Assembly (NCBI GenBank): GCA_034408725.1
Contig: JAWXCN010000100.1
Location: 1-12,318 of the forward strand
Direction of reading: 5' to 3'
Length of the DNA stretch: 12,318 nucleotides
Origin: Candidatus Hydrogenedentota bacterium
Lineage (GTDB): Bacteria; Hydrogenedentota; Hydrogenedentia; Hydrogenedentales; SLHB01
Part shown: piece after piece, positions 1-12,318 of the stretch
How the letters are laid out: each line of letters opens with the position of its first letter
Position numbering within the stretch: position 1 is the stretch's first letter
Position numbers and translations under genes: made by a program
Notes under the pieces: model-generated
What the model was told of the DNA's origin: nothing
The model's input: the letters and a program-made list of their open reading frames with translations, nothing else
Database searches by the model: none

Positions 1-20
1 CATTTCGAGTACCCCGAAGT

Positions 21-113
21 GAAAGCGGCGCTGACACGCCGCAGTCCAAGGCGCTCAGCGCGGCCTAGTCTCCGCGCGGAGCGCCTTGGAGTGCGGCGGT
101 AGTTGGCGCTTTC
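21..113. repeat. REP-like inverted doublet forming a long imperfect hairpin (REPIN/BIME-like)
   Basis: 37-56 CGCCGCAGTCCAAGGCGCTC pairs with 79-98 GAGCGCCTTGGAGTGCGGCG (1 mismatch). Inner stem 58-63/72-77, outer stem 21-27 GAAAGCG/107-113 CGCTTTC. TTGGAGTGCGGCG...CGCTTT resembles, from memory, dispersed extragenic palindromes of GC-rich bacteria. Confidence 0.7.
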
Positions 114-173
114 AATTTCCTGGGCAAATTCGCATCGCAATTGACCGTGATCGCCCCAGTATGCATGGGCCCA

Positions 174-203
174 TTGAATTAAGAAGTCGGCCTGTGCTAC
201 AAA
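174..203 (+). promoter_or_regulatory. Possible sigma70-type promoter for the leader-hisI-trpEG transcript
   Basis: TTGAAT (174-179), 18-nt spacer, TGcTACAAA (extended -10-like, 195-203). Imperfect match, but positioned just upstream of the leader RBS. Confidence 0.3.
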
Positions 204-246
204 TACTGCACTAACGCGGCAATCTAACCGCACCGGAGGAAATGTG

Positions 247-300
247 ATGCCAGCCCATTCGACTTCTCCCCGTCGATGGCGTCACCATATCCACGCCTAG
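247..300 (+). CDS. Putative His/Trp leader (attenuator) peptide MPAHSTSPRRWRHHIHA (17 aa; 18 aa if started at GTG 244)
   Basis: Strong SD GGAGGA at 235-240, 6 nt before ATG 247; TAG at 298-300. Trp codon at 277-279 and His codons at 256-258, 283-288 (tandem) and 292-294. Lies directly upstream of hisI-trpE-trpG and is too short for the ORF track. Confidence 0.7.
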   Translation: MPAHSTSPRRWRHHIHA

Positions 301-387
301 TTTCCTCCTATTCTTTCTGGTAGTCCCGAAACGGTTATTGTGTTTACACGCCTCCGAGCCGGCTGTAAAACAAGAGGATGGATTGTC

Positions 388-777
388 ATGCGCTCCGATG
401 ACCCAAAACCCCAAATGATTGCAGACATCCTGAAGCTGGATGCAAACGGTCTCGTCGCAGCCGTAATACAGCACCACGCAACCGGCCAGGTGCTCATGGT
501 GGGATATATGAACCGGGAAGCGCTCGATATTACGCTGCGTGAGCAGCGCGCATGTTTTTGGTCACGCTCACGGCAGAAATTGTGGCGAAAGGGTGAAAGC
601 TCCGGCAACTTCCTGAACGTGGTCGAAGTCCGCACCGATTGTGATAATGACGCGCTACTGTTGCGGTGCGACCCCGTCGGCCCCACGTGCCATACGAACG
701 AAACCAGTTGCTTTTACCGTGTCGTGAAACCCGATGGCGCCGTCGCTCTCAATGGCGATGGCGTTGCCACCGGATAA
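388..777 (+). CDS. hisI: Phosphoribosyl-AMP cyclohydrolase
   Basis: Motifs GQVLMVGYMN, FWSRSRQKLWRKGESSG, DCDNDALL and CHTNETSCF. SD GAGGA at 374-378 favours ATG 388 (alternative ATG 415). No fused HisE domain. Confidence 0.96.
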   Translation: MRSDDPKPQMIADILKLDANGLVAAVIQHHATGQVLMVGYMNREALDITLREQRACFWSRSRQKLWRKGESSGNFLNVVEVRTDCDNDALLLRCDPVGPTCHTNETSCFYRVVKPDGAVALNGDGVATG

Positions 778-809
778 AAACATGCGGCTTGCCGCGCGAG
801 GATATACAA

Positions 810-2285
810 ATGATTCACCCCACACGCGAGGAATTCCGGCGCGTTGCTACCCCACGCTCGCTGGTACCGGTCCATCGCGACATCGTCGCCGATTTGGAAA
901 CACCGGTGTCCGCGTACATGAAAATTGCCACGGATCATAAATTCTCGTTTCTCCTAGAAAGCGTCGAAAAGGCCGATACTATCGGCCGATATTCTTTTCT
1001 AAGCGCAAACCCTTCCATCGTCTTTCAATCCAAAGGCAACCAAGTCACCATTACCCGCAACGGCGAGCCCTCAACGTTTGAAAGTCTCGACCCGCTCACC
1101 GAATTAAAGACACTCATGGCCCAGTATCGGCCCGTGCAAATCGACCGCGTTCCCGGGTTCCACGGCGGTGCAGTCGGGTACATGTCTTACGATCAGGTCC
1201 GCTTTTTCGAAAAGCTACCCGATGAGAATCCCGACACGCTCGGACTTCCCGATCTCTATTTCATGATCACCGACACTATCCTGATCTTCGACCACGTCAA
1301 CAATCTGCTTAAGATCGTGTCAAACGCGCATGTCGAGAAAAATGCCGACGGCGCATACGACGCGGCGGTCCAGAAGATCGACGCCATCTCCGCTCTGCTT
1401 AAGCGCCAACTTTACGTTCCCACCACCACCTCGGCGCACGCGGACGCCACCACGAAATCGAGTTTCTCGAACGAAGGCTTTTGCGACGCTGTTCGCAAAG
1501 CGAAGGAATACATCTCCGCGGGTGATATATTTCAGGTAGTGCTCTCGCAGAGGTTCGAGCGCAAGGTGAATGCTTCGCCCATCAACCTCTATCGCGCGTT
1601 GCGCTGCATCAACCCGTCCCCCTACATGCTTCTCCTTCAGTTTCCCGACATGGCGCTCGTTGGTTCGAGCCCGGAAGTCATGACGCAGGTGCGCAATGGC
1701 CGCTGCATGGTGCGGCCCATCGCGGGAACCCGTCCCCGCGGCGCGACGCCCGAACATGACCTCGCCCTCGAAACGGAACTCCTCGCGGACGAAAAAGAAA
1801 TCGCGGAGCACGTCATGCTCCTCGACCTCGGACGCAACGATGTTGGCCGCATCTGCAAGCCAGGCACCGTCGCGCCAACCAAACGCATGAGCATCGAGCG
1901 TTACTCGCACGTCATGCACATCGTCAGCCAGGTTGAAGGCGACATGCTCGACGAAGCCGACGCATACGACGCTTTGCGCGCGACCTTCCCAATGGGCACC
2001 GTCAGCGGCGCGCCCAAAATTCGCGCCATGCAAATCATCGATGAACTCGAACCACTCCGGCGCGGGCCTTACTCTGGGGGTGCGGGCTACATCAGCTTCA
2101 ACGGCGAGATGGACACCTGCATAATCATCCGTACCATGATCCTCAAAGATGGCGTCGCGTACGTCCAGGCTGGCGCAGGCATAGTTTACGATAGCGTGCC
2201 GGAACGTGAATTCGAGGAAACCGTAAACAAGGCGAAAGCACTCTTCCGCGCCGTTGAATTTGCCGAAAAAGGACTCGAACTATGA
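810..2285 (+). CDS. trpE: Anthranilate synthase component I
   Basis: Motifs [14 protein letters not shown] and NPSPYM (Trp feedback-site motifs), [61 protein letters not shown] 798-802 before ATG 810. Confidence 0.93.
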
Positions 2286-2848
2286 TCGTCCTCATTGATA
2301 ATTACGACTCGTTCACCTACAACCTCGTCCAGTATTTCGGCGAAGTGGAACCGGACGTGCGCGTCTTTCGCAACGACGCGATCACCGTCGATGCCATACG
2401 TGATCTAAAACCGGACCGCATCGTCATCAGCCCGGGGCCGTGTACGCCGAACGAGGCAGGCATTTCAATCGAAACCATCAGGGCGCTCGGCAATTCGTTT
2501 CCCATTCTCGGTGTGTGCCTCGGGCATCAGAGCATCGGCGCGGCATACGGAGGCGAAATTGTCCGCGCGGACCGCATCATGCACGGAAAGATCAGCAGCA
2601 TCAGCCACACCGGCAACCCGCTCTTTGCGAATGTGCCGTCGCCGTTCAACGCGACGCGCTATCACTCGCTGATCATCCGGCGCGAGACCTGTCCTGATTG
2701 TCTCGAAATCATCGCGGAAACGACCGATCAAGGCGAAATCATGGCCGTTGCGCACAAGGATCACCCCGTGTGGGGTGTGCAGTTCCATCCCGAAAGTATC
2801 CTCACGGAATCCGGAAAACAGATCGTCAAAAACTTCATGGTCGCCTGA
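2282..2848 (+). CDS. trpG: Anthranilate synthase component II / TrpG-PabA glutamine amidotransferase
   Basis: Motifs [42 protein letters not shown] overlap with the trpE stop. Confidence 0.94.
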
Positions 2849-2955
2849 TCGCCAACACGGCGCGCAATCGCGATCAGACTGCAGACACTTCGCGCCCGAT
2901 TGCTCGCAGCCCGGCTCGAATGCGCTAAGCCGCTGTGTTTTCTTGGCTTATGGTT

Positions 2956-2984
2956 TTGACTTCCCGCCAACAGTGTGCTAAAGT
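2956..2984 (+). promoter_or_regulatory. Sigma70-type promoter
   Basis: TTGACT (2956-2961), 17-nt spacer, TAAAGT (2979-2984), with extended -10 TG at 2976-2977. Upstream of the 3032 ORF. Confidence 0.6.
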
Positions 2985-3031
2985 CAAGAGATTCTCTTGG
3001 GGAATCCCAATCAACAGGGAGGCGGAGCCTC

Positions 3032-3604
3032 ATGGCCCCGAACAAAAAACAGCTAAAGTTAATCGAATTATTGGACCGTAGCATCCAACTGACCCGCGAG
3101 TTCATGAACGACTGGCTGCTCTTTAATCAGATTCTGAGCGCCTATCCAAGCCCCGGTGTCAACAAGGCCCAGTTGGAAAACCAGTTCCTGAAGATCAAAA
3201 GCAAATTGGCCCGCGGCCATCAGGTGCTGCGGGAAAGTCTGGGCGCCGACTACAAGTTTGACTCGAACACGATGAATATCGTGTCCGGCGCAACGAACCT
3301 GGAGTCGATCTACTCGCAATCCGAAGTCGCCATCAAAAAACTGCAAAATGAATGGCATCGGGCGTTCATAGCGATTAACGAAACGCTCGGCGGGCTCGAG
3401 GACAAAAAAGTCCGCGCCGAAGGCGGCGAAAATGTTGTCGTCGGCAACATGGTCATCACCCAAAAGGCCGGCATGTCAAAAGGCACCAAACAGGGGTTAA
3501 TCTTCCTGCTTGTCGTGGGCGTGCTTGGCGGTCTCGGATACGTCTTCAAAGTACACGAGTTATATTTGAGACTTCTTGGTGGCGCGACGCCGCCAGCGCC
3601 GTAG
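3032..3604 (+). CDS. Hypothetical helical protein with C-terminal transmembrane anchor (190 aa)
   Basis: SD-like GGGAGGCGGAG before ATG 3032. Amphipathic helical pattern; hydrophobic segment GLIFLLVVGVLGGLGYVF preceded by lysines. Confidence 0.8.
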   Translation: MAPNKKQLKLIELLDRSIQLTREFMNDWLLFNQILSAYPSPGVNKAQLENQFLKIKSKLARGHQVLRESLGADYKFDSNTMNIVSGATNLESIYSQSEVAIKKLQNEWHRAFIAINETLGGLEDKKVRAEGGENVVVGNMVITQKAGMSKGTKQGLIFLLVVGVLGGLGYVFKVHELYLRLLGGATPPAP

Positions 3605-3669
3605 CAACAGTTGGCGGGGGTAGCTCGGATTCACCGGAAGAATGCGAGGAGGAGAAGGGGGAAGTCGTT

Positions 3670-4017
3670 TTGACCAAACGAGAACTTGTCATTGAAGTGG
3701 CCGAACGCCTGGGTTATACGCAAAACGAAGTTTCAGTGGTTGTACAAGGCACATTGGACGCCATCGTTGCGTGCCTGGCCGAAGGCCAACGCCTCGAGAT
3801 TCGAAACTTCGGCGTCTTCGAAGTAAAATCGCGCGACGCCCGCATGGGCCGCAATCCGCGCACCGGCGATGAAGTCCCTATTAAAGAAAAAAAAGTTGCC
3901 ACGTTCAAGCCCGGGAAAGCGCTGAAAGAATATGTGCAGGACCCTGCCCAGCTCCCGCCACCATCGTTCAGCGATACGGAACTGGTCGCGGAGGTTACAT
4001 CGAGCGCATCCCATTAA
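3670..4017 (+). CDS. Integration host factor / HU family DNA-binding protein (IHF-beta-like) with ~25-aa C-terminal tail
   Basis: Motifs MTKRELV, LEIRNFGVF, GRNPRTG, FKPGKALKE. TTG start after a purine-rich SD region. Confidence 0.93.
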   Translation: MTKRELVIEVAERLGYTQNEVSVVVQGTLDAIVACLAEGQRLEIRNFGVFEVKSRDARMGRNPRTGDEVPIKEKKVATFKPGKALKEYVQDPAQLPPPSFSDTELVAEVTSSASH

Positions 4018-4044
4018 TCCGTGTAATACTTTGTTTTCTATTCA

Positions 4045-4081
4045 ACCGAGGACGGCCAACGCGCCGCCCTCGGTCTTTTAT
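4045..4081 (+). terminator. Intrinsic terminator after the IHF/HU gene
   Basis: Stem ACCGAGG-a-CGGC / GCCG-c-CCTCGGT (4045-4074), 6-nt loop, followed by CTTTTAT. Confidence 0.7.
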
Positions 4082-4093
4082 GAATCGCGCCGG

Positions 4094-4123
4094 TTGCAAC
4101 ACTTCCATCCGGCCTTGTACGAT
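4094..4123 (+). promoter_or_regulatory. Possible sigma70-type promoter for tatC
   Basis: TTGCAA (4094-4099), 18-nt spacer, TACGAT (4118-4123), located between the terminator and tatC. Confidence 0.4.
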
Positions 4124-4203
4124 CCCCGTGCTGCGGCGTAGCTTGATAGAGACGGCTTTCCGGCGCTTCGCGCGGGAGTCGCCCAAAGGCGGTAACAATC
4201 ACG

Positions 4204-4947
4204 ATGGCGACGATGGGCCTACTTAACGGCGACGATAAGCGCATGACGTTTACCGAGCACCTCGGCGAATTGCGCATCCGCCTGATTCGGGTCGTTGTCG
4301 TCCTTGCCCTCGCTTTCATTCTGTGCTTCTACTTTTCAGAAGCCCTCTTCAAACTTATACAGCGCCCCCTCATTGGAAAAGATATTCCGTGGACCACGCT
4401 GCGCCCAATGGAGTCGTTCCTCGTCTACATGAAGCTCGCCGGCTTCGGCGCGGTCGCGATTTGTTTTCCCCATATCGTATTTGAACTCTGTTCCTTCATA
4501 TTCCCTGGGCTCAAAACCAATGAGAAACGCGCCGCAATGGTCCTCCTCGCCGGATGCGCGGCGCTCGCCATCGTCGGCGTCGGCACAAGCTACTTCTTGG
4601 TCGCCCCCCAGCTTATCAACCTCATGATGGACTGGACGCCCGATACCGTCACGCAGCAGCTTCAAATGTCCGATACTGTCAGTTTCGTGTTGATGCTGTT
4701 ACTCGCCTTTGCAATAGCCTTCCAATTCCCGATGGTGGTCCTGATCCTCGTGTTTTTGGGCGTCGTCACACCAGACGCCCTCAAGCAGTACCGGAGCATC
4801 GCGATTGTCCTTCTCGCAATAGCCGCCGCGGTGCTCACACCCACCGTGGACCCGTTCAGTTTCCTTATCATGTGGGTGCCCCTCGTGCTGATGTATGAGG
4901 CCTGCATCTGGATCGCGAAACTGATGGTGCGGAAACGCAAGGAGTAG
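4204..4947 (+). CDS. tatC: Twin-arginine translocase subunit TatC
   Basis: Motifs MTFTEHLGELRIRL, FIFPGLKTNEKR, AFQFP, AAVLTPTVDPFS, LMYEACI; about 6 TM segments. Exact start uncertain (4204, 4213 or 4243). Confidence 0.96.
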   Translation: MATMGLLNGDDKRMTFTEHLGELRIRLIRVVVVLALAFILCFYFSEALFKLIQRPLIGKDIPWTTLRPMESFLVYMKLAGFGAVAICFPHIVFELCSFIFPGLKTNEKRAAMVLLAGCAALAIVGVGTSYFLVAPQLINLMMDWTPDTVTQQLQMSDTVSFVLMLLLAFAIAFQFPMVVLILVFLGVVTPDALKQYRSIAIVLLAIAAAVLTPTVDPFSFLIMWVPLVLMYEACIWIAKLMVRKRKE

Positions 4948-4966
4948 GCGCACAGCCGCAACCAAC

Positions 4967-5503
4967 ATGTTGAACATCGGATTACCAGAGATGGTCGTTA
5001 TCGCGGGCATAGCCCTCATGGTCCTCGGCCCCGAAAAATTCCCCGGCCATGCCAAGATTTTTCTGCGAATGCTGCGCGACGTGCGTGATCATTGGGACGA
5101 CGCCAAACGCGAAATTACCAAGGAACTCAATCCAGTCAAAAAGGAACTCCGCGATCTCCAGCGCTTCAAACCGGAAGAGTTCCTCGACAAAATGACCGGA
5201 GATGTGAATAAAGAAATTACCGCCAGTCCCGCCAATGACAACCCTTATGGCCCCGGCTATCCCTACGCCGATGTCATTGAAGACACAGCGAAACCCGCAA
5301 GTGATGCGGCGCCAAAGCCCGCCGGAGATACTGTCGAATTCGATTCGTCACCGAAGGAACCGTCACCCGGCCGTTCGGAAGACTCCACCTGGGATAGAAA
5401 AGAACAGGATGTAGTTACCGATGGTGGGCCATTGACGGAAGAACAGGAATACCGTTCCGCGCAAAAAGATGACGATCCCCATCCAAAAGACGGTTCGGAT
5501 TGA
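4967..5503 (+). CDS. tatB: TatA/TatB family translocase subunit, TatB-like with long acidic disordered tail
   Basis: MLNIGLPEMVVIAGIALMVLGPEKFP (TM helix plus GP hinge), then an amphipathic helix; adjacent to tatC. Confidence 0.85.
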   Translation: MLNIGLPEMVVIAGIALMVLGPEKFPGHAKIFLRMLRDVRDHWDDAKREITKELNPVKKELRDLQRFKPEEFLDKMTGDVNKEITASPANDNPYGPGYPYADVIEDTAKPASDAAPKPAGDTVEFDSSPKEPSPGRSEDSTWDRKEQDVVTDGGPLTEEQEYRSAQKDDDPHPKDGSD

Positions 5504-5507
5504 TCGA

Positions 5508-6290
5508 ATGACGCGCCAGGAATTCAAGCAAGTCTGCAAACAACGCCGCATGTCCTGGGGCGTGGTCCTGCTCGAACACGTGACGCCCATGATGGCGCGC
5601 ACCTTCGCGCGCGCGGGTTACGACTGGCTGTGGATCGACAACGAGCACGCCCATCAATCCTATGAAACCATCTACGAAACCGCCCGCGCCGCGGAAGACG
5701 TCGGTATCATTCCCCTCGTGCGTGTTACCTCGAATGACTACTCACGTATTGCCCAAGCGCTAGATATGGCCATCGGCGGCGTGATCGTCCCGCGCGTCGA
5801 GACGCCGGAGGAAGTGCGTCATATCGTCGACTGCGCCAAGTATCCCCCAGCCGGCAAACGCGGATTCGGCATGCGCGCTGCGCTGTTTGGCCAACATAAA
5901 ATGAACATGCAGGACCGCGTCACCGACCAAAATGACCGCCGGTTCCTCGTCATCCAATTGGAAAGTCCAAAAGCCGTGGACAATATCGAGAGAATGATCG
6001 AAGTCGCCCAAGGACAGTTAGACGCCATCTTCTATGGACCCGCCGATTTCCAAATGAAAATCGGTTGTCCCGACACTCCAGATCATCCCGACGTCATCGC
6101 CGCCGCAAAACGCATCACGAACGTATCCGCGAAACACAATCTGTCCAACGGCGTGCCCGCGACATCCATCGAAACAGCCCGGCATTGGCGCGATCTCGGC
6201 TTCAATCTCATAACCTACAAGAGCGACGACCAATTCCTCGCCGACGGCGCCTACGAAGGACGCAACGCATTGCGCGCGCTGGAACCGTAA
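5508..6290 (+). CDS. HpcH/HpaI family class II pyruvate aldolase (substrate unknown)
   Basis: Motifs GYDWLWIDNEH, LVRV, ALDM..GGVIVPRVET, KYPPAGKRG, IQLES, GPAD. ATG 5508 follows the tatB stop (alternative overlapping start 5469). Confidence 0.9.
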   Translation: MTRQEFKQVCKQRRMSWGVVLLEHVTPMMARTFARAGYDWLWIDNEHAHQSYETIYETARAAEDVGIIPLVRVTSNDYSRIAQALDMAIGGVIVPRVETPEEVRHIVDCAKYPPAGKRGFGMRAALFGQHKMNMQDRVTDQNDRRFLVIQLESPKAVDNIERMIEVAQGQLDAIFYGPADFQMKIGCPDTPDHPDVIAAAKRITNVSAKHNLSNGVPATSIETARHWRDLGFNLITYKSDDQFLADGAYEGRNALRALEP

Positions 6291-6331
6291 CGCGCTTCCA
6301 TTGCCGGGACGTTCCGGCGATACTCTCGTCC

Positions 6332-9300
6332 ATGTTCTTCCACGCGCGAATAAACCAACAGGCAATCCTCCCTCTTATTCTCGCCGCCGCATGGTGCATC
6401 CCGCCAATGGCCGTCAACGCGCAAACAGTCCTCGTCGAAACCGCCACGCTCACAGCGTCCCGCGAATCAGTCCGCGTATATCTCCAACAACTCCGGCTCG
6501 ACGACCCAACTCTTGAACTCCTCCCGGTCCAGATGCCCGGCGATTCACCCGCAGGCCCCATCTTCCTCGCGCCAGACAGTTCGACCGCCATCACTGCAAC
6601 AAGGATACATCGGTATGGCAATACCGCGGACATCCTGGCCGGGATTTCTCTCGCCACGCCCCGCATCCCAGATAGGTACGCACAATCAATTGGGTTGCTG
6701 AATCAGAATCTCGCGGGACTGGTCAATGGAAACGCACAAGAATCTCCGCGCGCCGTCGTGGTCGGAACATTAGACAGCGGCCCTCTTGCTGGACATGGCC
6801 GCATCGACGCGTGGCCGTACCAGTCGAATCCATCACTGTCATTTCATGATTCGCCCGCCACGTGGTTGCTCCCCGGAGCTCCGTTCGCCGCGCTCACGCA
6901 TCCTACCGCGAATTGGGCCGCTGTGTTGTGCATGACGCCCGCGGGCACAACCGTCCTCCACGTCAGGGACATGCTGCGCGGACGCATCCTTCAGGAACGC
7001 ATGCCCATCGCCGGCCCGCGCGAACAACTCGAGCCCGCGGCGCTCGCGCTTCGCGCAGACAGCGGCATTTTGCTTGCAGTGCTCAATTACACCAGCACGG
7101 AAGGCGCTGGCGGTGAAGGACGCTGCCATGCGGTTGCAATTGATGCCCGCTCCTTTACCCGCCGCGGAGATGTCGTCGAACTGCCAGGCCTTTTCACACA
7201 GGACTGCCAGATAGAGCAAGCCGCGAACGACGCATGGTGGATTTCTACACGCACCCCCGGCGCCGGGTTCGCATTCGTTACGCGCCTTGTCGCGAATGGG
7301 GAAACATTCGAACAAGGAAACCAGTATTCCTTCACGAGTGTCACCCATAACGTCCGCATCGCCTCTTCGGGTACGAATCTCGCAGTCAGTGTCGACCGCA
7401 GGCTGGCGATTTGGCCAAACGGCGTGCCCGGTAGCATCTCGGTCTCGTACGCCACGCCGATTTCTGCCATCGATTGGGCCGGAGACCTGGTCATCGCCTC
7501 GGAAGCAAATCGCATCCACGGCGTCAGGGCCAGTGACGGCGACGAAGTGGCGATGTGCGCTGTGCAATCGGGCCACGTAGTCGCCCTGCGCGCGCTTCCT
7601 CCAAATATAACGTTGCCCGTAGAAACCGACGGCGATCGCATCGCCGACTCCGTCGATCCCGAACCCGGCCAAGTTTCGCCGCACCTCGATCTGCCCTCCC
7701 GGATTACGTTGCGCGCGGAAGCCGCGGGCCGCGAGGTGCGCGCCATCCGCATTGATGCCGAGCACGCCGGCAACGCTGTCTGGACTGTCGATGTAGACCC
7801 CCAACACGCCCCGTGGTTGCGCGTGTTCCCCAGGCACGGAACCGTGCCCGGCTGGTTTCTCGCGGGCATCGATCCCTCACAACTGTTTGAAAATAACGGC
7901 GCAACCGCGACAATCGCGGTGTCACTCTCCGGCACTACGCCTAAAATGCCCGCGGCCAACTCCCCACGTCGCATCACCGTGGATATCCGCCCGCGTAGCG
8001 CGGACGCCAAAAAAATACTGTGGCTACTGGGCGCGAATGTCTCACCCAACGAACAAGACCAAGAGACCGGAAACGGACCAGAAAATGCAGTAGAGCCAGG
8101 GAACCCAGACTTCGCGGCGCTCGCGCGTGTCCTCGCCGGACCTCCCTTTTACTTCTCCCACGTCTACCCCAATGGCCGAGCACCCGAAGTGCTCGTTCCC
8201 TACGGCGCAGTCGTCGTCGATACCGGCGCCATTGACCGCGGAATCGTAAACAGGCAAGCCCTCCTGGATTACGTCGCGGATGGCGGCGGGCTGCTACTCG
8301 TCGCCGGAATGTCCACTGCCGCCGCTCCGGTATCGCAACGCTGGCTCTCACCTTTGGGAATTGTGCTGGACGGTGAAGGCTTGACCGCCGACAAAACGAA
8401 AGTTGTCGCGCAACACAAATTAACCCAAAATTGGCCCGCTACCGATATGTCAGACGCTGCTCGCATTCAAGTCGGGGCTGGCTTGACCGTCTTGGCGCAA
8501 ACGGGGGATGTTCCCGTGTTTGCCATACGGCCATTCGGTCGAGGGCGCCTCGCCGTCCTCGCCGCTCCGAATCCCCTCTTCCTAAATCCGCCCAGTCTCA
8601 ATCGCGCCTTCACGCTCGACCTCTTCGAGTGGCTCTCACGCGCAATTCTTGAATCCGCTGACCTCGACGACGACGGACTGCCAGACTCCCTCGAAGACCG
8701 CAACGGCAACGGCATTGTCGACCCCGGCGAAACAAGCCAGCTAATTCCCGACTCGGACGGCGACGGCCTTCCAGACGGCGCCGAAGACCAGAATGCTGAT
8801 GGCATCGCCGATGAAAATGAAACCAGTCCAATCCATCCCGATTCCGATGGAGATGGCAACTGGGACGGCGCGGACTACGACCCCCTGCCCCCCGCCGGCG
8901 CTCCAACCGCCGCCGCGTTCTTGCCAAACACGGGACCAGCCGAAGGCGGAACGCGGGTCATAATCGATGGCCGCAATCTGACCGCCGATACCGCCATCTG
9001 GTTCGGCGCACACCCCGCGCGCATCGTGCGTCTAACGAATACGACAAGCCTGTTGGTCGAGTCTCCCCCTGCTGATGAGCCCGAAGGCGGGCCGGTGGAC
9101 GTTCGGATTGAAGGCGCAGGCGCGCAAAGCACCATTCTCACGGGCGCATTTACCTATACCCCCCGAAGCTCGGTGATGCTATCCATTACCGCAGTCGCCG
9201 CGTCGAGGACGCAATACGAAGCACTCGTAACACTCCGCCTTGATGCGCCTCCCGGCGTGCGGATCGGGCGCATCGCCGCGCGGCTGGATTCAGAACCACC

Positions 9301-9595
9301 CATGCAAATGGAATGGTCCAACCTCCGCCCTACGCCCGATGCCACCCTCGCGGGCCGCCGCGTTGTTCAGGACGGTCCCGTCGAATCCGGCATCGCATTC
9401 ACTATTACTGCACCCACCCGCGCGCCGGACGCCAAAGACCTAATCACCGTTAGTGGCCGGAGCCGGTTCCCGCTGACCGCCGGGCCGTCTGTCTCGTTGA
9501 CTCTCAACGACATAACCGTAACCGCCCCAAATGGCGCGCCTCTCGACGTGGAAATTGCCCCCATCCCATTCCAATGGCCCTCACGCACTCCGTAA
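6332..9595 (+). CDS. Large secreted/surface multidomain protein (beta-rich N-terminus, BACON-like Ig domain, GATase-like domain, Asp-rich Ca-binding repeats, IPT/TIG domain, C-terminal beta-sandwich)
   Basis: Signal-peptide-like N-terminus (ILPLILAAAWCIPPMAVNA-Q). DxDxDG repeats at ~8660-8887. IPT motif PNTGPAEGGTRVIIDGRNL...FTY at ~8920-9160. ALLDYVADGGGLLL...FGRGRLAVL segment. Start placed at the first ATG after the aldolase stop. Confidence 0.8.
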   Translation: MFFHARINQQAILPLILAAAWCIPPMAVNAQTVLVETATLTASRESVRVYLQQLRLDDPTLELLPVQMPGDSPAGPIFLAPDSSTAITATRIHRYGNTADILAGISLATPRIPDRYAQSIGLLNQNLAGLVNGNAQESPRAVVVGTLDSGPLAGHGRIDAWPYQSNPSLSFHDSPATWLLPGAPFAALTHPTANWAAVLCMTPAGTTVLHVRDMLRGRILQERMPIAGPREQLEPAALALRADSGILLAVLNYTSTEGAGGEGRCHAVAIDARSFTRRGDVVELPGLFTQDCQIEQAANDAWWISTRTPGAGFAFVTRLVANGETFEQGNQYSFTSVTHNVRIASSGTNLAVSVDRRLAIWPNGVPGSISVSYATPISAIDWAGDLVIASEANRIHGVRASDGDEVAMCAVQSGHVVALRALPPNITLPVETDGDRIADSVDPEPGQVSPHLDLPSRITLRAEAAGREVRAIRIDAEHAGNAVWTVDVDPQHAPWLRVFPRHGTVPGWFLAGIDPSQLFENNGATATIAVSLSGTTPKMPAANSPRRITVDIRPRSADAKKILWLLGANVSPNEQDQETGNGPENAVEPGNPDFAALARVLAGPPFYFSHVYPNGRAPEVLVPYGAVVVDTGAIDRGIVNRQALLDYVADGGGLLLVAGMSTAAAPVSQRWLSPLGIVLDGEGLTADKTKVVAQHKLTQNWPATDMSDAARIQVGAGLTVLAQTGDVPVFAIRPFGRGRLAVLAAPNPLFLNPPSLNRAFTLDLFEWLSRAILESADLDDDGLPDSLEDRNGNGIVDPGETSQLIPDSDGDGLPDGAEDQNADGIADENETSPIHPDSDGDGNWDGADYDPLPPAGAPTAAAFLPNTGPAEGGTRVIIDGRNLTADTAIWFGAHPARIVRLTNTTSLLVESPPADEPEGGPVDVRIEGAGAQSTILTGAFTYTPRSSVMLSITAVAASRTQYEALVTLRLDAPPGVRIGRIAARLDSEPPMQMEWSNLRPTPDATLAGRRVVQDGPVESGIAFTITAPTRAPDAKDLITVSGRSRFPLTAGPSVSLTLNDITVTAPNGAPLDVEIAPIPFQWPSRTP

Positions 9596-9671
9596 ACTCA
9601 AAATACTGCGTGGAAGCACTTCCCGGTTAATTTTGTTTACAATAGATGCAGACGAATCGGGAGTGTTCCAA

Positions 9672-10466
9672 ATGCCGTCATGGTTTTCCAAAGTTTTCAA
9701 AGATAAGAATAACGCTGCAACCGGGACCCGCCCACCTTTGGGCGGCATAGACGTGAGCGAAGACCCGGAACCGGAAACCAAGCCTGTTCCGGAAAAACGG
9801 CGTCTGCTCGTAAACGCCCCCGTGTTGGAAGACGCCGTCGAAACGGCCGCGTGGAGCGCGGATGTCCGCATCAAGGCGCGCGTCGAAAAAGACAACAGCG
9901 CCTGCGTACTTATGGTCGACCGGCCGATCCTTGAGGGCCATTCCGCGTGGTTTCCGTCAAAGTTAAAAGCCGGAACGTCATCGCTTGCTCAAACTTTGTT
10001 TGAAATTGATGGCGTCGAAACGGCCCTGATTCACGGCTTCACCGTAACGCTAACGCGCAGGCCAACAATGCACGGCGATTGGAAGCAGCTCGCGCAGGAA
10101 GCCGGTAACGCTATTCGCGCGCACCTGATCGAAGGCTTGCCTGTCGTCACCCCAGAATTCCTGGATGGATTGCCGGCGGAGGACGCGATCCTGACAACGT
10201 TGAAGCGCGTGCTGGACACGGAGATCAACCCCAGTATCGCAGCCCATTCCGGCGAAATCGCGCTGGACCGCGTCGAAGGCAATACCGTCTACATACAGAT
10301 GATGGGCGGGTGCCAGGGATGCGCGGCGTCGGACGTGACCTTGCGCCAAGGTGTCCACGACGCATTCCGTAGCGCCGTTCCGCAAATCGGCGCTATCCTC
10401 GACAACACTGATCATAGCGCCGGTAAAAGTCCGTTCTATAAAGAACTGCCGGTGGGGATGAGTTGA
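9672..10466 (+). CDS. Nfu/NifU-family Fe-S cluster carrier (Nfu_N domain plus NifU C-terminal domain)
   Basis: LAQTLFEIDGV...VTLTR...W (Nfu N-terminal domain) and INPSIAAHSGEI...VYIQMMGGCQGC (NifU_C with CxxC). SD GGGAG before ATG 9672. Confidence 0.9.
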   Translation: MPSWFSKVFKDKNNAATGTRPPLGGIDVSEDPEPETKPVPEKRRLLVNAPVLEDAVETAAWSADVRIKARVEKDNSACVLMVDRPILEGHSAWFPSKLKAGTSSLAQTLFEIDGVETALIHGFTVTLTRRPTMHGDWKQLAQEAGNAIRAHLIEGLPVVTPEFLDGLPAEDAILTTLKRVLDTEINPSIAAHSGEIALDRVEGNTVYIQMMGGCQGCAASDVTLRQGVHDAFRSAVPQIGAILDNTDHSAGKSPFYKELPVGMS

Positions 10467-10467
10467 T

Positions 10468-10812
10468 ATGCCAAAGCTGAATACTTTCGACGTGGTCATT
10501 AAAACTGGCGCAAACGGCCCCGCCGCGCTGCCCAAATGGGCGATCAACGGTTTCGTTGTCGAGTTTGAGCAATCGAAAGGCGGCAACGGCCCCGGTGAAA
10601 CATTTGAAGGAACCGCGAATCCGGGAAGCTTTCCCCATTCGCTGCTCATTCGCGGCCCGGAGTCCGGACAATGGGATATCGAGGAAACCAAAGTGACCTA
10701 TTATCCCAATGGTGAATCACCCTATACCGTGCGGCTCGGAGCCGCCCGGCTTGATGAAGAGTCCGATCTGAACATTTGGCACGAGCGGCCACAGGCCGTC
10801 TTCGACGTATGA
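10468..10812 (+). CDS. Hypothetical beta-rich protein (114 aa), possibly PLAT/LH2-like
   Basis: Starts 1 nt after the nfu stop, with codon style like its neighbours. FDVVIKTG...SLLIRGPESGQWDIEETKVTY pattern. Confidence 0.8.
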   Translation: MPKLNTFDVVIKTGANGPAALPKWAINGFVVEFEQSKGGNGPGETFEGTANPGSFPHSLLIRGPESGQWDIEETKVTYYPNGESPYTVRLGAARLDEESDLNIWHERPQAVFDV

Positions 10813-10823
10813 GGTAAACTATC

Positions 10824-11171
10824 ATGAGCGTTGAACTCGCGAAAAAAGAATGTGTACCGTGCAAAGGTGGCGTCGAGAAACTCACCGTCGCGCAAATTAA
10901 ACCCTTGCTCAATGAACTTGGAAATGGCTGGGATGCCGTGGACAATCATCACCTCGAAAAAACATACAAGTTCAAGGATTTTGTCCAGGCCCTTGCATTC
11001 ACCAACACCGTCGGCGAAATTGCCGAGGAACAAAACCATCATCCGGATATCCTGACGACCTACGGTAAAACCAGCGTCACCATCTGGACACATACTATCG
11101 ACGGGCTGACCGAAAGCGATTTCGTGTTCGCCGCAAAAGTCGAGGAGGCCCATAAATCACATGCCATGTAG
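10824..11171 (+). CDS. phhB: Pterin-4-alpha-carbinolamine dehydratase (4a-hydroxytetrahydrobiopterin dehydratase)
   Basis: Motifs LEKTYKFKDF, AEEQNHHPDI, WTHTIDGLTESDFVFAAK; N-terminal CVPC; SD GAGGT before ATG. Confidence 0.93.
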   Translation: MSVELAKKECVPCKGGVEKLTVAQIKPLLNELGNGWDAVDNHHLEKTYKFKDFVQALAFTNTVGEIAEEQNHHPDILTTYGKTSVTIWTHTIDGLTESDFVFAAKVEEAHKSHAM

Positions 11172-11607
11172 CGATGTAACCGAAATCATTCATGTCGAAA
11201 TCGACAGCGAAGATAATCTGCAGGACTACTACTTCTCGAAACGCACCTGCGGACAAGGAGTAGGTTCTGGCAATCTGCTCATCGAGAACCTCAAAGGCTG
11301 GAGCACGGACCGAATCCTTGCTACGGACTCCGACGAATTCGTGTCCCTGTTTCCCGTCGAAGACCCGCTCGAAGAGTTTCTCGGCCTGAAACATTTCTTC
11401 GCGATTCAAGCCGTGCTCGAAGTGCTCACCGGAAAAGAACCCGGCGGCAAAAACGACCCCTGCGCCGCCGCCGAAATCTCCTACGGTGACGACAAACTCA
11501 TCATCGACGGACAAATCGCCGTAGACCTCGTCACCGAAAAGATCAAGTCCTGCGGAAGCTGTAAAGGCTGCGGCAAACCGAAAAAGCCGAAGATCGTTTT
11601 CAACTGA
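11161..11607 (+). CDS. Cys-rich hypothetical protein, putative divergent IscU/NifU_N-like fold with C-terminal CxxCxxC
   Basis: Overlaps the dehydratase gene end by 11 nt, with SD GAGGAGG upstream. Cys at residues 3, 30, 101, 131, 134, 137. Residues 3-89 align by eye with the IscU core. The ORF is secure; the family call is an inference. Confidence 0.8.
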   Translation: MPCSDVTEIIHVEIDSEDNLQDYYFSKRTCGQGVGSGNLLIENLKGWSTDRILATDSDEFVSLFPVEDPLEEFLGLKHFFAIQAVLEVLTGKEPGGKNDPCAAAEISYGDDKLIIDGQIAVDLVTEKIKSCGSCKGCGKPKKPKIVFN

Positions 11608-11619
11608 TGTAGCGCGAAG

Positions 11620-11689
11620 TTCCGGGTATCGGGTTCCGGGTATCGGGTTCCGGGTATCGGGGTTCGGGGTCCGGGTTCCGGGTTCCGGG
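11620..11689. repeat. Tandem heptamer array, 10 units of consensus (T/G)(T/A)(C/T)CGGG
   Basis: (TTCCGGG TATCGGG)x3, then GTTCGGG GTCCGGG TTCCGGG TTCCGGG. Confidence 0.95.
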
Positions 11690-11738
11690 GTCTCGTACAT
11701 CGTGCTCGTATAATCGTAACTGGCGCTATATCTCCCCT

Positions 11739-11786
11739 CGTTCCAAAATTTCCATTTTGGAACGCGCTCTTAAAAAGCTCTGCTTT
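11739..11786. repeat. REP-like palindrome plus small second hairpin
   Basis: Perfect 11-bp stem CGTTCCAAAAT (11739-11749) / ATTTTGGAACG (11754-11764), followed by AAAGC-TCT-GCTTT. Confidence 0.6.
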
Positions 11787-11824
11787 GCGAGCCAACGCGA
11801 CGGCTTAATCTATTACGGTGGATT

Positions 11825-11895
11825 GGAGACCTGCGGTCGTCCCGTGTGGCGCGGTCGGGAGACCGGCCACAACGGCACAGAGACCAGCCACAACG
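11825..11895. repeat. REP-like hairpins with partial direct duplication
   Basis: GACC-TGC-GGTC (11828-11838); TGTGGC-g-CGGTC-ggga-GACCG-GCCACA (11845-11871); direct repeat GAGACCRGCCACAACG at 11859-11874 and 11880-11895. Confidence 0.65.
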
Positions 11896-11935
11896 ACGAT
11901 AGCAACATCCCCGACGACGAAAACGCTACTTGAAT

Positions 11936-11963
11936 TCCTTCGTGTCCTTCGTGTCGTCGTGGT
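11936..11963. repeat. Short 9-mer tandem repeat (TCCTTCGTG x2 plus a degenerate third unit)
   Basis: TCCTTCGTG TCCTTCGTG TCGTCGTGGT, immediately downstream of the minus-strand gene stop. Confidence 0.55.
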
Positions 11964-11976
11964 GAAAAATTCTTAG

Positions 11977-12225
11977 TTATGGATCATCCCCCGCATCCTC
12001 AGAGTCATCGCCTTCCTCTACTAACTCACCAAACCGCTTCTCCGCATCGGCCATCCGCTTCACGCCCGCCTGCCGCTGACGCAGCTCCCTCGAAATGTTC
12101 CGTTTGCCCTCGCGATACGCCAACCGCACCCGCGCCAGCCGCGCGCCGTCCTCATCCGGTGACAACGCCCGCGAACGTTCATACAAACCAAACGCGCGCT
12201 CCGCGTTTTCCTCGCTCGCCTCGGC
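11977..12225 (-). CDS. C-terminal fragment of a helical (possibly TPR-like) protein; 5' part absent
   Basis: Frame reads ...AEASEENAERAFGLYERSRALSPDEDGARLARVRLAYREGKRNISRELRQ...EEGDDSEDAGDDP-stop. It stays open to the window end, but 12226-12318 is an inverted copy of its own sequence. Confidence 0.6.
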   Translation of the reverse strand, partial: AEASEENAERAFGLYERSRALSPDEDGARLARVRLAYREGKRNISRELRQRQAGVKRMADAEKRFGELVEEGDDSEDAGDDP

Positions 12226-12318
12226 GACGGCGCGCGGCTGGCGCGGGTGCGGTTGGCGTATCGCGAGGGCAAACGGAACATTTCGAGGGAGCTGCGTCAG
12301 CGGCAGGCGGGCGTGAAG
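12058..12318. repeat. Perfect 93-bp inverted repeat (12058-12150 / 12226-12318) with 75-bp spacer, reaching the window end
   Basis: The reverse complement of 12226-12318 is identical to 12058-12150; the ORF track shows the same peptide start on both strands. Confidence 0.95.

Follow-up and report, generated by a model that had tools for sequence, protein, structure and literature searches.

A putative tryptophan-sensing leader peptide upstream of hisI-trpE-trpG in Candidatus Hydrogenedentota

Introduction

Leader peptides that resemble the one described here are known from several operons. In enterobacteria, hisL carries a long tandem run of histidine (His) codons, and the multivalent leaders thrL (Thr and Ile codons) and ilvL and ivbL (codons for branched-chain amino acids) carry dense codon runs. 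In the pyrBI and pyrE leaders of E. coli, RNA polymerase pauses when uridine triphosphate (UTP) is low, and a ribosome following closely behind it leads to read-through. TnaC senses free tryptophan (Trp) via conserved residues; the ribosome translating it arrests at the stop codon, and a catabolic operon is regulated by way of Rho. To our knowledge, nearly all described cases of leader-peptide attenuation come from Proteobacteria, Actinobacteria and a small number of Firmicutes. Here we report on a short open reading frame (ORF) that precedes the genes hisI, trpE and trpG in a stretch of 12,318 nucleotides (nt) from a Candidatus Hydrogenedentota bacterium (contig JAWXCN010000100.1, positions 1 to 12,318; the whole stretch is referred to below as the window). 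The sections of PMC1262725 that treat actinobacterial trp attenuators give them two or three UGG codons and GC-rich terminators, and those that treat the candidate cys leaders of Mycobacterium describe no obvious terminators and polypyrimidine motifs proposed as Rho sites.

A literature search at the level of titles and abstracts found nothing relevant on a His-plus-Trp leader, or on any trp leader or trp regulation in Hydrogenedentota. On balance, the comparisons presented below favor a lineage-specific, ribosome-mediated attenuator of hisI-trpE-trpG, in which the UGG at codon 11 of the leader would be the sensor and ribosome occupancy of the leader would be the read-out.

Results

A conserved leader ORF upstream of hisI

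The leader ORF occupies positions 247-300 of the forward strand and consists of 17 codons followed by TAG (298-300), encoding the peptide MPAHSTSPRRWRHHIHA. Its codons are ATG CCA GCC CAT TCG ACT TCT CCC CGT CGA TGG CGT CAC CAT ATC CAC GCC TAG, with His at codons 4, 13, 14 and 16 and Trp at codon 11 only. The in-frame GTG at 244 could also serve as the start; the spacing from the Shine-Dalgarno (SD) sequence is better for the ATG at 247. The gap between the leader stop and the hisI start (ATG 388) is 87 nt. An earlier annotation made from the letters of the window (the original prediction) had proposed an unannotated leader peptide with Trp and His control codons in front of a hisI-trpE-trpG operon, and its coordinates (SD 235-240, ATG 247, TAG 298-300, 87 nt) are exact to the base. 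It also named the downstream genes correctly, with profile matches above the equivalog cut-offs for hisI and trpE. The features of the leader and of the genes behind it are as follows.

235..240, + strand: SD sequence GGAGGA of the leader ORF (from the sequence and from SD counts in relatives)
247..300, + strand: leader ORF, MPAHSTSPRRWRHHIHA (from the sequence; present in 79 of 84 distinct loci)
256..258, + strand: His codon 4 (CAT), at Trp-7, a position that is His in 20 of 69 leaders
274..282, + strand: core CGA-UGG-CGU, with the Trp codon (277-279) between two arginine (Arg) codons; CGATGGC is invariant in alignments
283..294, + strand: His codons 13, 14 and 16 (CAC CAT ATC CAC), at Trp+2, Trp+3 and Trp+5 (counts given below)
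388..777, + strand: hisI, monofunctional phosphoribosyl-AMP cyclohydrolase (PF01502, E 8e-34; NF000768, 152 bits, cut-off 126)
810..2285, + strand: trpE, anthranilate synthase component I (TIGR00564 equivalog, 590 bits, cut-off 517.7)
2282..2848, + strand: trpG, TrpG/PabA-type glutamine amidotransferase component II (TIGR00566), with a 4-nt overlap with trpE

By their NCBIfam/TIGRFAM profile matches, hisI, trpE and trpG of the window are true equivalogs. The source genome is 92% complete, and the window begins at the start of its contig. Of the 8 sequencing runs listed as containing this DNA, none is an RNA run. Among relatives of the same genus, family and order, the hisI query from the window gives one match per genome, and trpE lies 3' of hisI in 30 of 30 loci.

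We assembled 110 loci, comprising these 30 and 80 from the genome collection, and retained 84 as distinct after dropping identical upstream stretches; one locus (L060), for which only 88 nt of upstream sequence is available, was omitted. A leader was recognized as CGA-UGG in a frame that ends at most 10 codons further on, no more than 330 nt upstream of hisI. We observed such a leader in 79 of the 84 distinct Candidatus Hydrogenedentota loci, compared with 6 of 84 for the reverse complements and 3 of 84 for the interior of trpE, indicating that the mini-ORF is not a product of chance.

The leaders also bear signs of translation. An ATG lies exactly 30 nt 5' of the UGG in 51 of the 79, which fixes an ATG-UGG distance of 10 codons, and among these 51 the motif GGAG or GAGG falls within -18 to -4 of the ATG in 47 and starts 11-12 nt before it in 44. 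The leader frame is open from Trp-30 to Trp in 79 of 79 leaders, compared with 62 and 70 for the other two frames. All three stop codons are used (TGA in 39 leaders, TAG in 23 and TAA in 17), and the stop is 7 codons from the UGG in 54 of the 79. Between 0 and 7 codons follow Trp at the C-terminus: the coding part ends with UGG in 7 of the 79 leaders, and in 6 more just two codons come after it. Outside the core, leader codons vary freely among relatives. The SD spacing, the open frame, the three alternating stops and the free variation of the other codons together argue that the leader is translated.

We searched 135 genomes of the phylum with a covariance model of the canonical form, and 60 of them gave a match, exactly one in each. 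When the window genome was searched for the pattern, 15 matches were obtained, including the leader of the window itself and one other that is leader-like (C54); none of the remaining 13 has the Arg-Trp-Arg-His core. C54 is antisense to an apparent coding sequence and has no gene downstream, and we rejected it as a chance match.

Judged from these comparisons, the mini-ORF is more than chance: it is a member of a real, translated, single-copy leader family conserved across Hydrogenedentota. The leader peptide of the original prediction thus stands as a genuine, conserved and translatable ORF before hisI-trpE-trpG. Of the features that it expected to find retained in relatives, the SD sequence, the short ORF and the Trp codon are kept; His is present in 65 of 69 leaders, at no invariant position.

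The Trp codon as the probable sensor

UGG is present in every leader recognized. Among 69 distinct leaders, 59 have one Trp codon, 6 have two and 4 have three, and Trp accounts for 7.4% of leader codons compared with 1.5% in the genome. The leaders that fall outside the rule given above include some with tandem Trp codons (WW) and some with two CGA-UGG units. In one family of loci (f11), leaders of the forms WRW, WWRR and WWWRW are found, with 2-4 Trp codons in places among relatives.

The leader also occurs without hisI. In three loci (L111, L112 and L114) and in family f11, the leader precedes trpE with no hisI between them, and no hisI match was found anywhere in these 23 loci. In 16 of the 23, trpE is directly preceded by a CGA-UGG leader and in 6 by a UGG-CGA variant; the remaining one has too little upstream sequence for its leader to be judged. 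Since the leader stays before trpE where hisI is absent, these gene orders indicate that it belongs to trpE. As an aside, one of these loci (L111, from genome G018) has 343 nt between the leader and trpE, again with no hisI match, and this gap could be a decayed hisI.

The original prediction had ranked Trp sensing below His sensing. The relatives reverse that order, given that UGG is the constant of the family, that extra Trp codons have been gained and that the leader remains with trpE. From this pattern, it is likely that the leader peptide would sense Trp, in the manner of a ribosome-stalling attenuator.

A fixed CGA codon next to UGG

The sequence CGATGGC is invariant in both of our alignments, A1 (49 sequences) and A2 (38 sequences). 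CGA precedes UGG in 79 of 79 leaders, a count that is circular because the leader rule demanded CGA. When a looser rule was applied that accepted any Arg codon beside UGG, all accepted picks had CGA except those in two loci, L067 and L086. The second of these actually has a CGA-UGG leader, and the first may have a GCG-UGG variant. In six f11 loci, CGA is placed after UGG instead. CGA makes up 9.6% of the Arg codons in the window genome, and the CGA of the core is base-paired in only about half of the canonical leaders.

The transfer RNAs (tRNAs) for Arg in the assembly have the anticodons ACG, CCG, CCT and TCT, and none with a UCG anticodon was found in this assembly of a 92% complete genome. 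Given the apparent lack of a tRNA-Arg(UCG), CGA would be read by inosine-adenosine (I-A) wobble. In E. coli, such reading of CGA is slow. In yeast, I-A wobble reading of this codon is inhibitory (PMC6301793, PMC7379694). The CGA beside UGG may be a built-in slow codon, or brake, that makes one Trp codon sufficient as a sensor.

Predicted structure of the leader RNA

The RNA segment 229-318 folds with a predicted energy of -30.5 kcal/mol and a z score of -5.65, and none of 200 shuffled sequences folds as well. Its elements, all on the + strand, are as follows.

235..243, + strand: 5' strand (SD) of the outer helix P0, pairing with 300-308 (window fold, z -5.65; weak, register-dependent support in relatives)
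244..252, + strand: 5' strand of helix P1, GUG AUG CCA (start codon and flanks), pairing with 277-285 (minimum-free-energy fold; alignment pairing)
259..276, + strand: inner hairpin UCGAC...GUCGA, 259-263 with 272-276 (window folds only)
277..285, + strand: 3' strand of helix P1, UGG CGU CAC (minimum-free-energy fold; alignment pairing)
300..318, + strand: pyrimidine tract, with anti-SD UUUCCUCC (301-308) and then UAUUCUUUCU (309-318) (sequence; pyrimidine counts in 79 loci)

We evaluated helix P1 in alignments restricted to leaders of canonical geometry (49, then 38, of 69), a selection that favors the common register. Within these, 74% (49 sequences) and 74.5% (38 sequences) of P1 cells are paired, compared with at most 59% in slid registers. 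None of 500 shuffles reaches the observed percentage paired, the number of both-side changes or the covariation score, which are three of the five measures used. The mean pair probability of P1 is 0.45-0.74 in the 38 leaders, and among 14 leaders folded singly P1 is part of the minimum-free-energy fold in 13, with z below -2 in 10. According to these folds and alignments, P1, which pairs the start codon with the Trp-codon segment, is a conserved element of the predicted leader fold. In addition, a helix that encloses the leader, running from the SD/start region to a pyrimidine segment located where the ORF ends or beyond it, appears in 69 of 71 folds, in a variable register.

With respect to an antiterminator/terminator pair, P1 was the one conserved helix found; alternative small hairpins, in which the Trp segment pairs with the last part of the ORF, fit 76-82% of cells and have one invariant side. 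Classical three-hairpin schemes built with these small hairpins were tried and rejected, as no arrangement gave termination only when Trp is plentiful.

How the signal may reach hisI

The arrangement of the leader suggests the following mechanism. A ribosome waiting at UGG for scarce Trp-tRNA would sit within the hairpin and hold it open, and RNA polymerase would continue into hisI. When Trp-tRNA is plentiful, the ribosome would complete the leader and depart, and the hairpin would close over the leader's own ribosome-binding site and end transcription at the U-rich pyrimidine tract that follows (301-318 in the window). The deciding factor would be the presence of a ribosome on the leader and not its exact position, and a separate antiterminator would be unnecessary. 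Such a presence/absence read-out is favored over position-dependent switching by the fact that, in 13 of the 79 leaders, stalled and terminating ribosomes would cover nearly the same RNA. In the window, the hairpin 235-308 is followed directly by UAUUCUUUCU. Over +1 to +40 after the stop, the 79 loci are 68-74% pyrimidine, C-rich at first and shifting to U-rich, which would resemble the 3' strand of a terminator followed by its tail.

Several observations weigh against this mechanism. A U-rich tract within 50 nt of the stop is present in only 51 of the 79 loci, and a helix abuts the U tract in 31 of the 79 (from the SD region in 18, inside the ORF in 7 and local in 6), the SD-region class averaging 9.0 after the upstream 28 nt are shuffled. 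The 10 nt after the enclosing helix contain a mean of 4.03 T, compared with 3.55 in control windows, and a simple terminator scan of the + strand over 230-390 found no terminator. At a fixed register, the helix between the SD and the post-stop segment is 60.9% paired, compared with 60.4% in shuffles; the complementarity of these two segments averages -12.4 kcal/mol with their own partners and -11.7 kcal/mol with those of other loci, and 111 of 5000 permutations are as low. RNAalifold returned zero consensus pairs for the 49-sequence alignment. Because the leader stop lies right against the 3' strand of the hairpin, a terminating ribosome would cover that strand as well; for transcription to end at plentiful Trp, the polymerase would thus have to wait at the tract for the ribosome to depart. 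Finally, most leaders have a single Trp codon, compared with the two or three of the trp attenuators described in the relevant sections of PMC1262725. Weighing both sets of observations, we hold ribosome occupancy coupled to intrinsic termination as a tentative reading, at less than even confidence.

With the same sensor, transcription could instead be ended by Rho, acting on the C-rich and G-poor tract that follows the leader. Such a tract is general (26-41% C and 15-17% G over +1 to +40 in the 79 loci), unlike a U tract abutted by a helix, and a Rho gene is present in the genome. On the + strand, terminator-like sites are absent from the gaps after trpG and after the HU gene, and all six that were listed lie within genes; with no scan sites in these two gaps, canonical terminators are perhaps uncommon in this organism. 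A precedent has been proposed in PMC1262725 for the cys leaders of mycobacteria, in which polypyrimidine motifs occur and terminators are lacking. However, we found no structural switch that would let stalling of a ribosome at UGG mask the tract, and the tract would be equally exposed after normal termination, so that the direction of regulation would go unexplained. These last two points make a Rho-based read-out somewhat unlikely. Translational attenuation, in which a stalled ribosome would refold the RNA and free the ribosome-binding site of hisI, could draw on the pyrimidine tract, which is complementary to any SD sequence, that of hisI included. Yet in 74 loci the predicted accessibility of the hisI ribosome-binding site hardly responds to the ribosome: it is 0.432 when the leader is free, 0.424 when a ribosome occupies UGG and 0.419 when one occupies the stop codon, and the difference is positive in 27 loci and negative in 19. 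Among the leaders listed, between 54 and 267 nt separate the stop of the leader from hisI. On these predictions, translational attenuation would be very improbable.

A different kind of alternative dispenses with the sensor ORF. The element could act as a structured RNA with a protein, a tRNA or a small molecule as its ligand, the open frame being incidental, or it could encode a TnaC-like peptide that senses free Trp; the nucleotide invariance of CGAUGGC, which exceeds what the peptide needs, and the fixed ATG-UGG spacing of 10 codons would both be accommodated. A structured RNA is opposed by the same SD spacing, open frame, alternating stops and free codon variation that speak for translation. 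It is also opposed by an Rfam cmscan of positions 1-1000 at E values up to 10, which gave only two unrelated weak matches and no T-box, Trp_leader (RF00513) or His_leader. A T-box riboswitch was rejected on this result, and a TRAP-regulated leader was rejected as no TRAP gene (PF02081) was found in the 92% complete genome. With regard to a TnaC-type arrest peptide, the residues before Arg-Trp vary, which makes sequence-specific arrest unlikely; only Arg-Trp-Arg is conserved, the C-terminus after Trp is variable in length, and the operon to be controlled is biosynthetic, the reverse of the situation in tna. This candidate was rejected as well, and alternatives of this kind as a whole are very improbable in our estimate. 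A leader of the hisL type was likewise rejected, given that the longest His run is 2 in the window and 3 in any leader (L023) and that Rfam gave no His_leader match.

His codons and the question of dual sensing

Although ribosome stalling at UGG is the preferred reading, the leader His codons could also be regulatory, such that starvation for either Trp or His would open the attenuator. His codons (CAY) are enriched only in the leader frame, where they make up 157 of 1126 codons (13.9%), compared with 21 of 1057 (2.0%) and 27 of 1057 (2.6%) in the other two frames and with 2.4% in long ORFs of the genome. At least one His is present in 65 of the 69 leaders. By position, His is found at Trp+2 in 31 of 65 leaders, at Trp+5 in 33 of 53, at Trp+3 in 14 of 59 and at Trp-7 in 20 of 69. 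Upstream of Trp, where helix P1 imposes no frame, we counted 74 CAY among 630 codons, compared with 43.8 expected from position-specific base composition; Gln codons, which share their first two bases with those of His, number 21 there compared with 25.2 expected. The gene context is also consistent with dual sensing. The one hisI match of the genome lies behind the leader, and a hisF-like gene (PF00977) ends no more than 700 nt upstream of hisI on the same strand in 47 of the 84 loci, with the leader in the spacer, so that the leader separates hisF from hisI. A Trp-only attenuator at this place would tie histidine synthesis to Trp status, which is a physiological argument for working His codons. 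Moreover, fewer His codons are found in leaders directly before trpE (20 of 251 codons, 8.0%, in 16 distinct leaders) than in leaders before hisI (168 of 1176 codons, 14.3%, in 77 leaders), a comparison whose rule missed four f11 loci. The His codons after Trp are largely gone from f11 leaders that lack hisI, as judged by eye from the peptides and not from a computed count. Under an occupancy read-out, any slow codon within the hairpin would serve.

On the other hand, much of the His signal coincides with base pairing. The two hot spots, Trp+2 and Trp+5, account for 64 of the 157 His codons and pair with the triplet before the ATG and with the AUGG of the core, respectively; CAU and CAC are mere complements of AUG and GUG. 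The Trp+2 codon covaries with its partner: the pairs are GUG/CAC in 15 leaders, GCG/CGC in 3 and GGU/ACC in 1, and Trp+2 is His in 15 of 17 leaders in which the pre-ATG triplet is NTG, compared with 9 of 32 otherwise. A mean of 1.94 of the 3 positions is paired between this triplet and Trp+2, compared with 1.52 in 5000 shuffles, none of which reaches the observed value. Two alternative small hairpins place the Trp+5 codon opposite the AUG or the GGCG of the invariant core; 76% and 82% of their cells are paired, compared with at most 61% in slid registers, and their invariant 5' side leaves no room for covariation. In addition, no His position is fixed and no long His run occurs, leaders without hisI downstream still have about three times the background level of His, and the contrast between leaders with and without hisI comes down essentially to one clade (family f11 and 3 loci). 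Taking both sides together, we regard dual sensing as a serious possibility, albeit one with the weight of probability against it. In composition only, the leader fits a multivalent one, with Trp at 7.4% and His at 13.9% of codons and with hisI and trpEG downstream. Speculatively, and with little likelihood, one leader might couple the His and Trp pathways in a molecular "metabolic interlock," in which a ribosome held at UGG or at a flanking His codon would keep the operon on without an antiterminator and CGA would be a possible brake.

Surrounding DNA and the loci of relatives

The gene order hisF, leader, hisI, trpE, trpG is found, for example, in L017, L021, L024-L026 and L028, and the order in family f11 is hisF, leader, trpE, without hisI. 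In three f11 loci (L130, L132 and L138), the leader has a sole in-frame ATG, located in an overlap with the final codons of the hisF-like gene, and this arrangement suggests that the leader would be translationally coupled to hisF there. In L026 and L095, the CGA-UGG leader is absent and a long inverted repeat extends across the hisF-hisI spacer, ending in CUG UGG and a stop before hisI; this repeat may be a replaced or different control element. Between the leader and hisI of the window, a hairpin at 337-378 lies just before the hisI SD sequence. In four loci of the same genus (L002, L003, L004 and L006), the equivalent stretch has a second SD-like sequence, GGGAG, which by eye is in the loop of the hairpin.

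Upstream of the leader, TTGAAT (174-179) and TACAAA (198-203), separated by an 18-nt spacer, form a by-eye candidate promoter for the leader transcript that was not listed by the consensus scan. Further upstream, positions 15-120 form a long imperfect palindrome (approximately -75 kcal/mol as RNA). This sequence is repeated at dispersed sites in the genome, with 186 short-blastn match lines over many contigs, often at contig ends. This palindrome is the source of a spurious Rfam microRNA match, and it probably explains the contig break at the start of the window. Elsewhere in the window, the ORFs at 2975-3604 (209 amino acids), 10468-10812 (114 amino acids) and 11161-11607 (148 amino acids) match no Pfam family, and the first of these has no NCBIfam match either. 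The ORF at 6065-9595 (1176 amino acids) has one IPT/TIG near its C-terminus as its sole recognized domain.

Discussion

The leader described here adds a well-supported leader family in an uncultured phylum, one that can be recognized from sequence alone and can be used in RNA and small-ORF annotation. It departs from the textbook design in four respects, namely its one sensor codon, the fixed rare codon beside it, the pairing of the sensor with the start codon and the stop that abuts the closing helix. By placing a histidine gene under a tryptophan-type leader, it also bears on cross-pathway control of His and Trp. Set against known systems, its sequence features mark it as a putative new, lineage-specific Trp leader, for which dual sensing of His and Trp is plausible.

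Like enterobacterial trpL (RF00513) and the Corynebacterium and Streptomyces trp attenuators, as these are presented in the sections of PMC1262725 devoted to them, the Hydrogenedentota leader is a short ORF with Trp codons and with anthranilate synthase genes behind it. It also resembles attenuators of the trpL type in that the segment containing its Trp codons pairs with other parts of the leader and that a pyrimidine- and U-rich stretch precedes the first gene. In contrast to that type, it usually has one UGG, its Trp segment pairs with its own start codon, its stop abuts the 3' strand of the hairpin and its first gene is hisI; furthermore, it gives no RF00513 match and a separate terminator/antiterminator pair was not found. 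With the mycobacterial cys leaders, as described in the corresponding part of PMC1262725, it shares a conserved leader ORF, regulatory codons near the stop, the lack of a clear terminator and polypyrimidine motifs. It differs from them in amino acid and in phylum, and pairing between the start codon and the sensor codon goes unreported in that part of the source.

The multivalent leaders thrL, ilvL and ivbL are similar in that one leader contains codons for several amino acids made by the genes downstream, whereas the His codons of the Hydrogenedentota leader are scattered, two of them at base-paired positions, in place of the dense runs of thrL and ilvL. TnaC likewise has a single critical Trp codon, at approximately position 11-12, and its stop is followed immediately by a pyrimidine-rich tract; the Hydrogenedentota peptide, by comparison, is conserved only in Arg-Trp-Arg and its operon is biosynthetic. 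In pyrBI and pyrE, as predicted for the Hydrogenedentota leader, the leader ORF overlaps the terminator hairpin and a ribosome on the RNA blocks that hairpin. There the signal is UTP, read through polymerase pausing, whereas here the proposed signal would be a ribosome held at the Trp codon.

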